A DNA stretch of 64,000 nt from Escherichia coli (GTDB lineage Bacteria > Pseudomonadota > Gammaproteobacteria > Enterobacterales > Enterobacteriaceae): the NCBI RefSeq assembly GCF_036507355.1, contig NZ_AP027877.1; one strand, 5' to 3'. The position numbers were made by a program, and so were the translations under genes. Shown piece after piece: positions 55,630 to 55,681 of the stretch. Every line of letters starts with the position of its first letter. Position 1 is the stretch's first letter. The notes under the pieces were generated by a model. It was given only the letters and a program-made list of their open reading frames with translations, made no database searches and had not been told where the DNA came from.

Positions 55630-55643
55630 GATAAAACTCACTA

Positions 55644-55681
55644 AACTGTCGATACGTACAGTATAGGATTTTTATACAGTG
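55644..55681 (-). promoter_or_regulatory. LexA box(es) of ydjM
   Basis: AACTGTCGATACGTACAGTA (55644-55663) is a perfect CTGT-N8-ACAG SOS box; an adjacent degenerate second box (minus strand CACTGTATAAAAATCCTATA, 55662-55681) has only one good half-site. Confidence 0.8.

Follow-up and report, generated by a model that had tools for sequence, protein, structure and literature searches.

Tandem LexA boxes at the ydjM promoter of Escherichia coli, their conservation in Enterobacterales and a conserved block upstream

The region immediately upstream of ydjM in Escherichia coli carries two LexA boxes side by side, and the explanation that we regard as very probably correct is that together they make up a tandem operator through which LexA controls the ydjM promoter, i.e. 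a classical control region of the SOS regulon. The two boxes rank second and third among all LexA-like positions in the window, by which we mean the whole stretch of 64,000 nucleotides that was analysed, and both are deeply conserved at ydjM loci of other enterobacteria. The two boxes, as well as the membership of ydjM in the SOS regulon, are already known. As far as SOS biology is concerned, the operator is a rediscovery of a catalogued site that brings nothing new, and it serves as a positive control for what can be read from sequence alone. What goes beyond the known operator is a phylogenetic footprint that covers 80 species and four more distant genera, and a conserved block of DNA upstream of the boxes that may have a regulatory function of its own.

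Position, sequence and scores of the two boxes

The window is part of the E. coli chromosome. The 1.6-kb stretch around the ydjM operator, annotated as tcyP - ydjM - hxpB, is present in 5,423 of the 5,426 complete E. coli genomes, and among 5,422 E. coli genomes compared over a 101-bp region at this locus, 5,370 show an identity of at least 99%. A rare exception is strain NIPH17_0036, in which 7 bp within box 2 are deleted. Read on the gene strand, the sequence 5' of ydjM is ...GAGTTACACCGTCACCACTTCCGTG CACTGTATAAAAATCCTATACTGTACGTATCGACAGTT TAGTGAGTTTTATC ATG, and the features recognised in it are collected in Table 1. The upstream gene, hxpB (yniC), is followed by a terminator hairpin, which implies that in Escherichia ydjM is a separate transcription unit, with a promoter of its own no more than about 130 bp away. 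At the position of the probable Shine-Dalgarno sequence, most other genera have GGG instead of GTGAG.

Table 1 Features of the ydjM upstream region (positions in the window)
Feature	Position	Strand	Remarks
ydjM coding sequence	55039..55629	-	ATG at 55629-55627; 591 bp, 196 aa (RefSeq)
Probable Shine-Dalgarno sequence GTGAG	55637..55641	-	7 nt before the ydjM ATG; read from the sequence
LexA box 1, promoter-proximal	55644..55663	-	AACTGTCGATACGTACAGTA as shown; TACTGTACGTATCGACAGTT on the ydjM strand
Candidate -10 element TATACT	55660..55665	-	5 of 6 positions as in TATAAT; bridges box 2 and box 1; putative
LexA box 2, distal, weaker	55662..55681	-	minus-strand CACTGTATAAAAATCCTATA; half-consensus
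Conserved upstream block	55683..55716	-	34 bp; includes the -35 region and perhaps a binding site of another factor
Core of the block, GTTACACCGTCAC	55692..55704	-	13 bp; 17-18 bp upstream of the TACTG of box 2
Intrinsic terminator of hxpB	55759..55790	-	Inverted repeat; 14-pair stem followed by a T-run

Both arms of box 1 are perfect, with CTGT at 55646-55649 and ACAG at 55658-55661. The spacer between them, CGATACGT, contains GC and deviates from the AT-rich LexA consensus, and owing to this spacer box 1 is predicted to be a weak-to-middling operator despite its perfect arms. Box 2 combines a consensus left half-site and an AT-rich spacer with a degenerate right half-site (CCTATA), which overlaps both the -10 candidate and box 1. 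The two 20-mers share 2 nt and their centres are 18 bp apart; the distance to the ATG of ydjM is 14 nt for box 1 and 32 nt for box 2.

An earlier note on this DNA had described a perfect LexA box, a CTGT-N8-ACAG palindrome at 55644-55663, at a distance of 15 bp from the ydjM start codon. The palindrome is indeed found there with the sequence given, the distance has to be corrected to 14 nt, and the qualification as perfect is justified for the CTGT and ACAG arms but not for the spacer, which is non-consensus and brings the score into the low range. The weaker second box that was suspected next to it is real in the sense that its left arm is kept in 78 of 81 loci, and it had already been described in the literature (PMC8072944; PMC4576408).

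The pattern CTGT-N8-ACAG occurs once in the 64-kb window against an expectation of 0.57, and 43 of 100 shuffled sequences contained at least one match. Since this count is not significant, the palindrome alone is no evidence, and a matrix scan, which had also been suggested as a check, was used instead. A symmetric LexA weight matrix was derived from 18 published boxes that did not include ydjM (motif table in PMC3009722), and 63,981 positions of the window were scanned with it. Box 1 (14.6 bits) and box 2 (12.2 bits) came out at ranks 2 and 3, followed by a next site of only 10.4 bits, and were preceded by the known cho box at 45188-45207 (20.9 bits), which is itself a training site. By chance, scores this high are expected 0.16 times per window for box 1 and 0.52 times for box 2, whereas none of 400 windows simulated with a first-order Markov model contained a pair of sites that both reached 12.2 bits and were no more than 30 bp apart. 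The leave-one-out scores of the 18 reference boxes range from 4.0 to 27.9 bits with a median of about 20, which places both ydjM sites inside the range, at its weak end. In terms of the heterology index (HI), calculated from the same 18 boxes, both ydjM sites are weaker than all reference boxes, with values of 10.2 for box 1 and of 9.8 or 13.2 for box 2, depending on its orientation.

Published expression data bear directly on the function of these sites. In an RNA-seq study of E. coli from 2024, ydjM was listed with the classic SOS genes; it was 2.5-fold up with AZT and depended 8.6-fold on the cleavage of LexA (wild type versus lexA3), at an HI of 9.0 (PMC11228462, Table 1). For uvrD, dinG, rmuC and ftsK, which have single boxes of similar HI, the LexA dependence was 1.7-1.9-fold in the same study, and the higher value of ydjM would fit added repression by box 2. 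A table in a review, compiled from Fernandez de Henestrosa 2000 and Courcelle 2001, also places the gene under 'known SOS box' (PMC6590174). For Salmonella, two ydjM boxes were reported, one at 14 nt from the ATG with an HI of 9.12 and the other at 32 nt with an HI of 12.85; the gene was 2.11-fold up with nalidixic acid, and a ydjM gfp fusion gave no detectable fluorescence (PMC8072944). Furthermore, CACTGTATAAAAATCCTATA has been described, at position -52, as an additional ydjM site that is absent from RegPrecise (PMC4576408). Thus, the proposal of the earlier note that ydjM is SOS-regulated via LexA agrees with the measured LexA-cleavage dependence (PMC11228462) and with the listing as a known SOS box (PMC6590174). 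Whether induction of ydjM depends on LexA, the question on which that proposal was to stand or fall, is in effect answered by the published RNA-seq, in favour of LexA.

Conservation of the operator and layout of the promoter

For the footprint, one genome per species was used; the 80 ydjM loci obtained represent about 30 genera of enterobacteria (85-99% protein identity) and together with the window gave 81 sequences. Their upstream regions were aligned on the invariant CTATACTG. The conserved segment is sharply bounded and lies between 55716 and 55644; upstream of 55716, conservation is absent. On the other side, the 14-nt linker to the ATG shows weak conservation and its length ranges from 13 to 23 nt, the distance between box 1 and the ATG being 14 nt in 66 of the 81 sequences. 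The TACTG and ACAG of box 1 are present in all 81 promoters, and the spacer occurs in 23 forms. The sole change seen in the arms of box 1 is from CTGT to CTGG, in 17 loci and with no compensating change in ACAG; this CTGG variant also occurs in accepted LexA boxes (ruvA, cho, dinG).

The left arm of box 2, [T/C]ACTGTA, is found in register in 78 of the 81 sequences, at a fixed offset of 18 bp from box 1. It is displaced by 1 bp in Leclercia adecarboxylata, and it has been lost in Citrobacter amalonaticus S646 and in Intestinirhabdus alba, both of which have an intact ydjM. No resemblance of the right half of box 2 to ACAG was detected in any of the 81 sequences; the conservation of this CCTATA segment has reasons other than LexA, namely its overlap with TATACT and with box 1. 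The more distant orthologues of Klebsiella pneumoniae, Shimwellia blattae, Pantoea and Erwinia amylovora (66-85% protein identity) all keep box 1, with scores of 16.4-18.2 bits. Box 2 reaches 10-13 bits in Klebsiella, Shimwellia and Erwinia, and is shifted by 1 bp in Pantoea. Since box 2 has one consensus half-site only, its right half is kept for other reasons and its left arm was lost in two species, it may be dispensable or weakly occupied.

The segment CCTATACTG is invariant in 72 of 72 unique sequences, including bases that are unexplained by LexA recognition. A scan of positions 55500-55900 for strict sigma-70 consensus promoters gave none above the thresholds, and a ydjM start site is absent from the supplements of Kim 2012, whether looked up under the gene name, the b-number or the coordinates. 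Two promoter models were read by eye. In the favoured one, TATACT would act as the -10 element in combination with a poor -35 (TTCCGT); box 2 would occupy the spacer between these two elements, and box 1 would lie over the -10/+1 region. The TATACT sequence is retained in both species that have lost the left arm of box 2, and TATACTG, in which the -10 element is fused to a LexA arm, is also found at cho in Salmonella and Citrobacter. In the less favoured model, the invariant GTTACA at 55704-55699 would be the -35 element, followed after 17 bp by [T/C]ACTGT as a weak -10; the spacing required for this holds in Erwiniaceae and fails in C. amalonaticus S646 and I. alba. With either model, both LexA dimers would be located on core promoter DNA. 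A promoter CTGAAA-17-ATTAAT that was assigned to ydjM in a genomic SELEX study (PMC3946193), at 55752-55724, was not adopted as the conserved promoter, since the DNA in which it lies shows conservation within Escherichia only and belongs to a coding sequence in other genera.

Control of ydjM by such a tandem operator can be envisaged as follows. In undamaged cells, a LexA dimer would be bound to box 1 through the perfect CTGT and ACAG arms, and a second dimer would most likely reside on box 2, 18 bp away from centre to centre, where the two might bind cooperatively. If TATACT is the -10 element, box 1 would extend from the 3' part of this element over the start site into the beginning of a leader of about 24 nt. 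With both dimers over the core promoter, RNA polymerase would be excluded. Upon DNA damage, activated RecA would stimulate the self-cleavage of LexA, both sites would become empty, and ydjM would be transcribed.

The upstream block and other explanations for the region

The sequence of the 34-bp block is TTTAAGAGAAAGAGTTACACCGTCACCACTTCCGTG in the window and in E. coli, and TTTGTGACAAAGAGTTACACCGTCACCTCTTCCGCC in most other genera. Its conservation per column is as high as that of the LexA arms. The core is the sole part of the block that is also kept in Erwiniaceae (GTTACAGCGTCAC), and GTTACANCGTCAC survives in both Erwinia and Pantoea. Conservation of the whole block across Enterobacteriaceae and of a 13-bp core in Erwiniaceae exceeds what is needed for a 6-bp -35 element. 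This suggests the possibility, which we put forward tentatively and consider less probable than its absence, that a second regulator that does not depend on LexA acts via the block and switches ydjM on under membrane or envelope stress. Such an input would be compatible with LexA control. The poor -35 element implied by TATACT is in line with this idea, as poor -35 elements are also found in activator-dependent promoters.

The expression data that point to a second input come from RNA-seq upon production of the membrane toxin TisB, where ydjM had a log2 change of 3.22 (about 9-fold, padj 9e-42), whereas recA and recN barely changed (0.63 and 0.44, respectively; PMC11575346, Dataset S1). The genes that rose together with ydjM included those of the Cpx regulon, ibpB and soxS, according to the same TisB study. 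When the SOS response is fully induced, the ranking is reversed, with recN up 19-fold and ydjM 2.5-fold (PMC11228462). On the other hand, this is a single transcriptome, in which effects on mRNA stability are possible, and the left repeat of the block (GTGACA) is degenerate in E. coli, the very organism in which the TisB response was measured. It is also possible that the block just represents the -35 element with upstream contacts of RNA polymerase.

No known motif was matched to the block. There may be a weak resemblance to the direct repeats of CpxR, OmpR or RstA, but none of the motifs of CRP, sigma-32, CpxR, OmpR/RstA, IHF and the marbox appears to fit well. If the hypothesis is true, ydjM would be a gene with dual input, responding to DNA damage via LexA and to membrane or envelope stress via another factor, and the second input would explain the induction by TisB with recA and recN remaining almost flat. 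The conserved block and the published, apparently SOS-independent TisB induction together provide a concrete and cheaply testable hypothesis, namely that ydjM may respond to membrane stress in addition to DNA damage.

Upstream of E. coli cho, at 45245-45265, a 19/20 copy of TGACAAAG(A)GTTACACCGTC was found, inverted relative to cho. No such copy is present 5' of cho in Salmonella, Citrobacter, Leclercia, Kosakonia and Enterobacter. The block as a regulon element common to ydjM and cho was rejected on the basis of this inversion, the five genera that lack the copy, and its location in an Escherichia-specific insertion. The same insertion also holds a REP-like hairpin and a match to the Rfam sRNA family ES036/CssrF.

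We consider it rather unlikely that box 1 is the only functional LexA site and that box 2 is conserved simply as core-promoter DNA, either as an A-rich -35/-10 spacer or as a TATAAA -10 element. Several properties of box 2 would be explained in this way: its right half is unlike ACAG throughout the 81 sequences, its score is expected about 0.5 times per 64 kb, its HI of 9.8 or 13.2 depends on the orientation chosen, and it is missing from RegPrecise (per PMC4576408). Moreover, ydjM was retained where the left arm was lost (two species) or shifted by 1 bp (two lineages). However, the presence of the left arm in 78 of 81 loci at a constant 18-bp offset from box 1 speaks against mere promoter DNA, and the finding that TATACT is intact in both cases of left-arm loss implies that the left arm itself is not an essential -10 element. 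The 8.6-fold LexA dependence of ydjM is also well above that of single boxes of similar HI, and an 18-bp distance likewise separates two of the boxes of Salmonella recN (8 and 26 nt).

An explanation at the RNA level, in which the palindrome would work as a hairpin in the 5'-UTR close to the ribosome-binding site and control translation or stability, is highly improbable and was rejected. The arms are able to pair, and the hairpin is present in the predicted fold of a 66-nt leader, but the folding energy of this leader is no better than that of shuffled sequences (-11.7 versus a mean of -11.8 kcal/mol, z = 0.04). The CTGG variant in 17 loci breaks a pair without compensation and is a standard variant of LexA boxes. 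No Rfam family matched in this region, the only hit in the Rfam search being a sub-threshold raiA match inside hxpB with 19.6 bits, as compared to a gathering score of 101. Finally, that the palindrome is a functionless product of chance is hardly conceivable: even though CTGT-N8-ACAG is expected 0.57 times per 64 kb, its arms recur in 81 of 81 promoters and four more distant genera, a second site adjoins it and LexA-dependent expression was published, so that the conservation data already refute this explanation.

The YdjM protein and comparison with known LexA-controlled genes

YdjM matches Pfam family PF04307 over residues 1-158 (E=7e-36, 123.8 bits with a cut-off of 29) and the NCBIfam equivalog NF008651, 'metal-dependent hydrolase' (375 bits with a cut-off of 216). 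It can be classified as an inner-membrane protein of the YdjM family and a putative metal-dependent hydrolase. In an alignment of 37 YdjM homologues, residues D46, D48, H49, H71 and H113 are invariant, and these conserved His and Asp residues would fit a putative metal site. A phmmer search of YdjM against the PDB produced no relative. The AF2 prediction had a pLDDT of 44.6 with the single sequence and improved to a modest 64.8 (pTM 0.61) with the 37-sequence alignment; a Foldseek search of the AF2 model against the PDB gave no match at E ≤ 0.001. The description of ydjM in the earlier note as encoding a membrane protein of unknown function holds. The 2024 TisB study also called the gene poorly characterised, and found that the survival (CFU) of a ΔydjM mutant after TisB expression was not significantly different.

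It is useful to compare the operator described here with other LexA-controlled systems. The closest is the ydjM (b1728) operator of E. coli K-12 that is catalogued in the SOS literature; it is the same locus, as the gene, the sequence of box 2, the HI of about 9 for box 1 and the LexA-dependent expression all match, and there is no substantial difference. The ydjM gene of Salmonella enterica (STM14_1605) has the same two-box geometry with distances of 14 and 32 nt, and both boxes are carried by the Salmonella loci of our set (L031 and L047). It differs in the spacer of box 1, which is nearer to consensus in Salmonella (TACTGTATGAATTGACAGTT), with a score of 19.6 bits as compared to 14.7 in E. 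coli.

At lexA and recN, too, at least two LexA boxes adjoin each other over a single promoter. In Salmonella, the recN boxes are at 8, 26 and 48 nt, an arrangement that includes the 18-bp offset seen at ydjM (PMC8072944). An important difference is that the extra boxes of lexA and recN have two recognisable half-sites, whereas box 2 of ydjM has one. The operator of cho (ydjQ), which the window also contains at a distance of about 10 kb, resembles that of ydjM in having a LexA box close to the start codon (13 nt), but it consists of a single box with a stronger match to the matrix.

LexA control of a member of this protein family is found outside the enterobacteria as well. Staphylococcus aureus possesses a LexA-regulated gene with a YdjM motif in a three-gene operon, together with genes for UDPGP-motif and HlyIII-motif proteins (PMC11442139). 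As in E. coli, a membrane protein of the YdjM family is thus controlled by LexA, albeit via a different SOS box, CGAAAATATGTTCG, and SOS control of the family recurs in a distant phylum. Since ydjM is among the few SOS genes without an assigned function, and the family is under LexA control in S. aureus too, clues from its expression are useful.

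Conserved sequences in front of ydjM

The 34-bp block that precedes the LexA boxes of ydjM (Table) is conserved to the same degree as the boxes themselves across about 30 enterobacterial genera, and its core is retained in Erwinia and Pantoea too. Its left repeat, GTGACA, is degenerate in E. coli. The block may comprise a -35 element and possibly the site of a second regulator. Copies of GTTACANCGTCAC with at most two mismatches are found 12 times in the window, as compared to 3.9 ± 1.8 expected, and none of 100 shuffles had as many. The majority of these copies lie within coding sequence, and the surplus may be due to oligonucleotide bias instead of function.

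Natural variants are found in box 2, the distal LexA box. A 7-bp deletion within this box in one E. coli genome, strain NIPH17_0036 (L086; CACTGTATAA-------ATACTGT as compared to window positions 55663-55672), removes its right half and changes TATACT, the candidate -10 hexamer. The ST131 strain EC958 (L087) carries a T-to-C variant in the spacer, which is the consensus of other genera. In Citrobacter amalonaticus S646 (L013) and Intestinirhabdus alba (L025), box 2 is without its left arm, with ydjM and box 1 intact, and the spacer of box 2 has a 1-bp insertion in Leclercia adecarboxylata (L062) and a 1-bp deletion in Pantoea (L084).

Many genera, among them Citrobacter, Klebsiella and Pantoea, carry an inserted gene for a short-chain dehydrogenase (adh_short) between hxpB and ydjM, and the conserved ydjM block starts just some 5-12 nt past its stop codon. 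No terminator is evident in genera with the inserted gene, and transcription there may proceed through adh_short into ydjM.

Features identified in the window and in ydjM loci fetched from other genomes (L numbers)
Feature	Position	Strand	Remarks
adh_short gene, ending ...AVDGGWLAR*	L007 626-1405; L082 1-409; L084 1-362		
Weak LexA-like site, GACTGGTGATAAATAAAGCA	42810-42829		between astE and spy; 10.4 bits, heterology index about 12.5-13.3
cho LexA box, already known, CACTGGATAGATAACCAGCA on cho strand	45188-45207		13 nt upstream of cho GTG at 45174
TGACAAAGGTTACACCGTC	45245-45265	+	19/20 copy, one gap, of enterobacterial ydjM upstream-block consensus
Rfam ES036 (CssrF) sRNA match	45282-45324	minus	nadE-cho spacer; 42.9 bits, gathering 37.6
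REP-like perfect hairpin, GTTCACGCCG...CGGCGTGAAC	45341-45366		immediately downstream of nadE
Conserved block, 34 bp, consensus TTTGTGACAAAGAGTTACACCGTCACCTCTTCCGCC	55683-55716	minus	directly upstream of ydjM LexA boxes
Block core GTTACANCGTCAC	55692-55704	minus	
Sub-threshold Rfam raiA match	55952-55994		inside hxpB; 19.6 bits, gathering 101.3, E=0.011

The cho operator and weaker matches

Since the cho box is present besides that of ydjM, there are two SOS operators in the window, at a distance of about 10 kb from each other. The cho box, itself a training site of the LexA matrix, is the best match to that matrix in the window (20.9 bits). The TGACAAAGGTTACACCGTC copy lies 37 nt beyond it, in inverted orientation relative to cho. 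No such copy was found upstream of cho in Salmonella, Citrobacter, Leclercia, Kosakonia or Enterobacter (L088-L092); a conserved element common to ydjM and cho was therefore rejected, and the copy is regarded as Escherichia-specific. The nadE-cho spacer measures 229 bp in E. coli versus about 93 bp in Salmonella, and the REP-like hairpin falls within its Escherichia-specific portion.

The LexA-like site between astE and spy is probably meaningless, since chance alone would give about 1.2 sites of this kind per window, and the raiA match is almost certainly fortuitous.

Induction of ydjM in published data

With the membrane toxin TisB, ydjM was increased about 9-fold (log2 3.22), whereas recA and recN were near-flat (log2 0.63 and 0.44; PMC11575346 Dataset S1). 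With AZT, the order of ydjM versus recA and recN was the opposite (PMC11228462 Table 1). The strong response to TisB, the nearly unchanged recA and recN and the reversed order with AZT thus point to induction of ydjM by membrane stress, independently of LexA.
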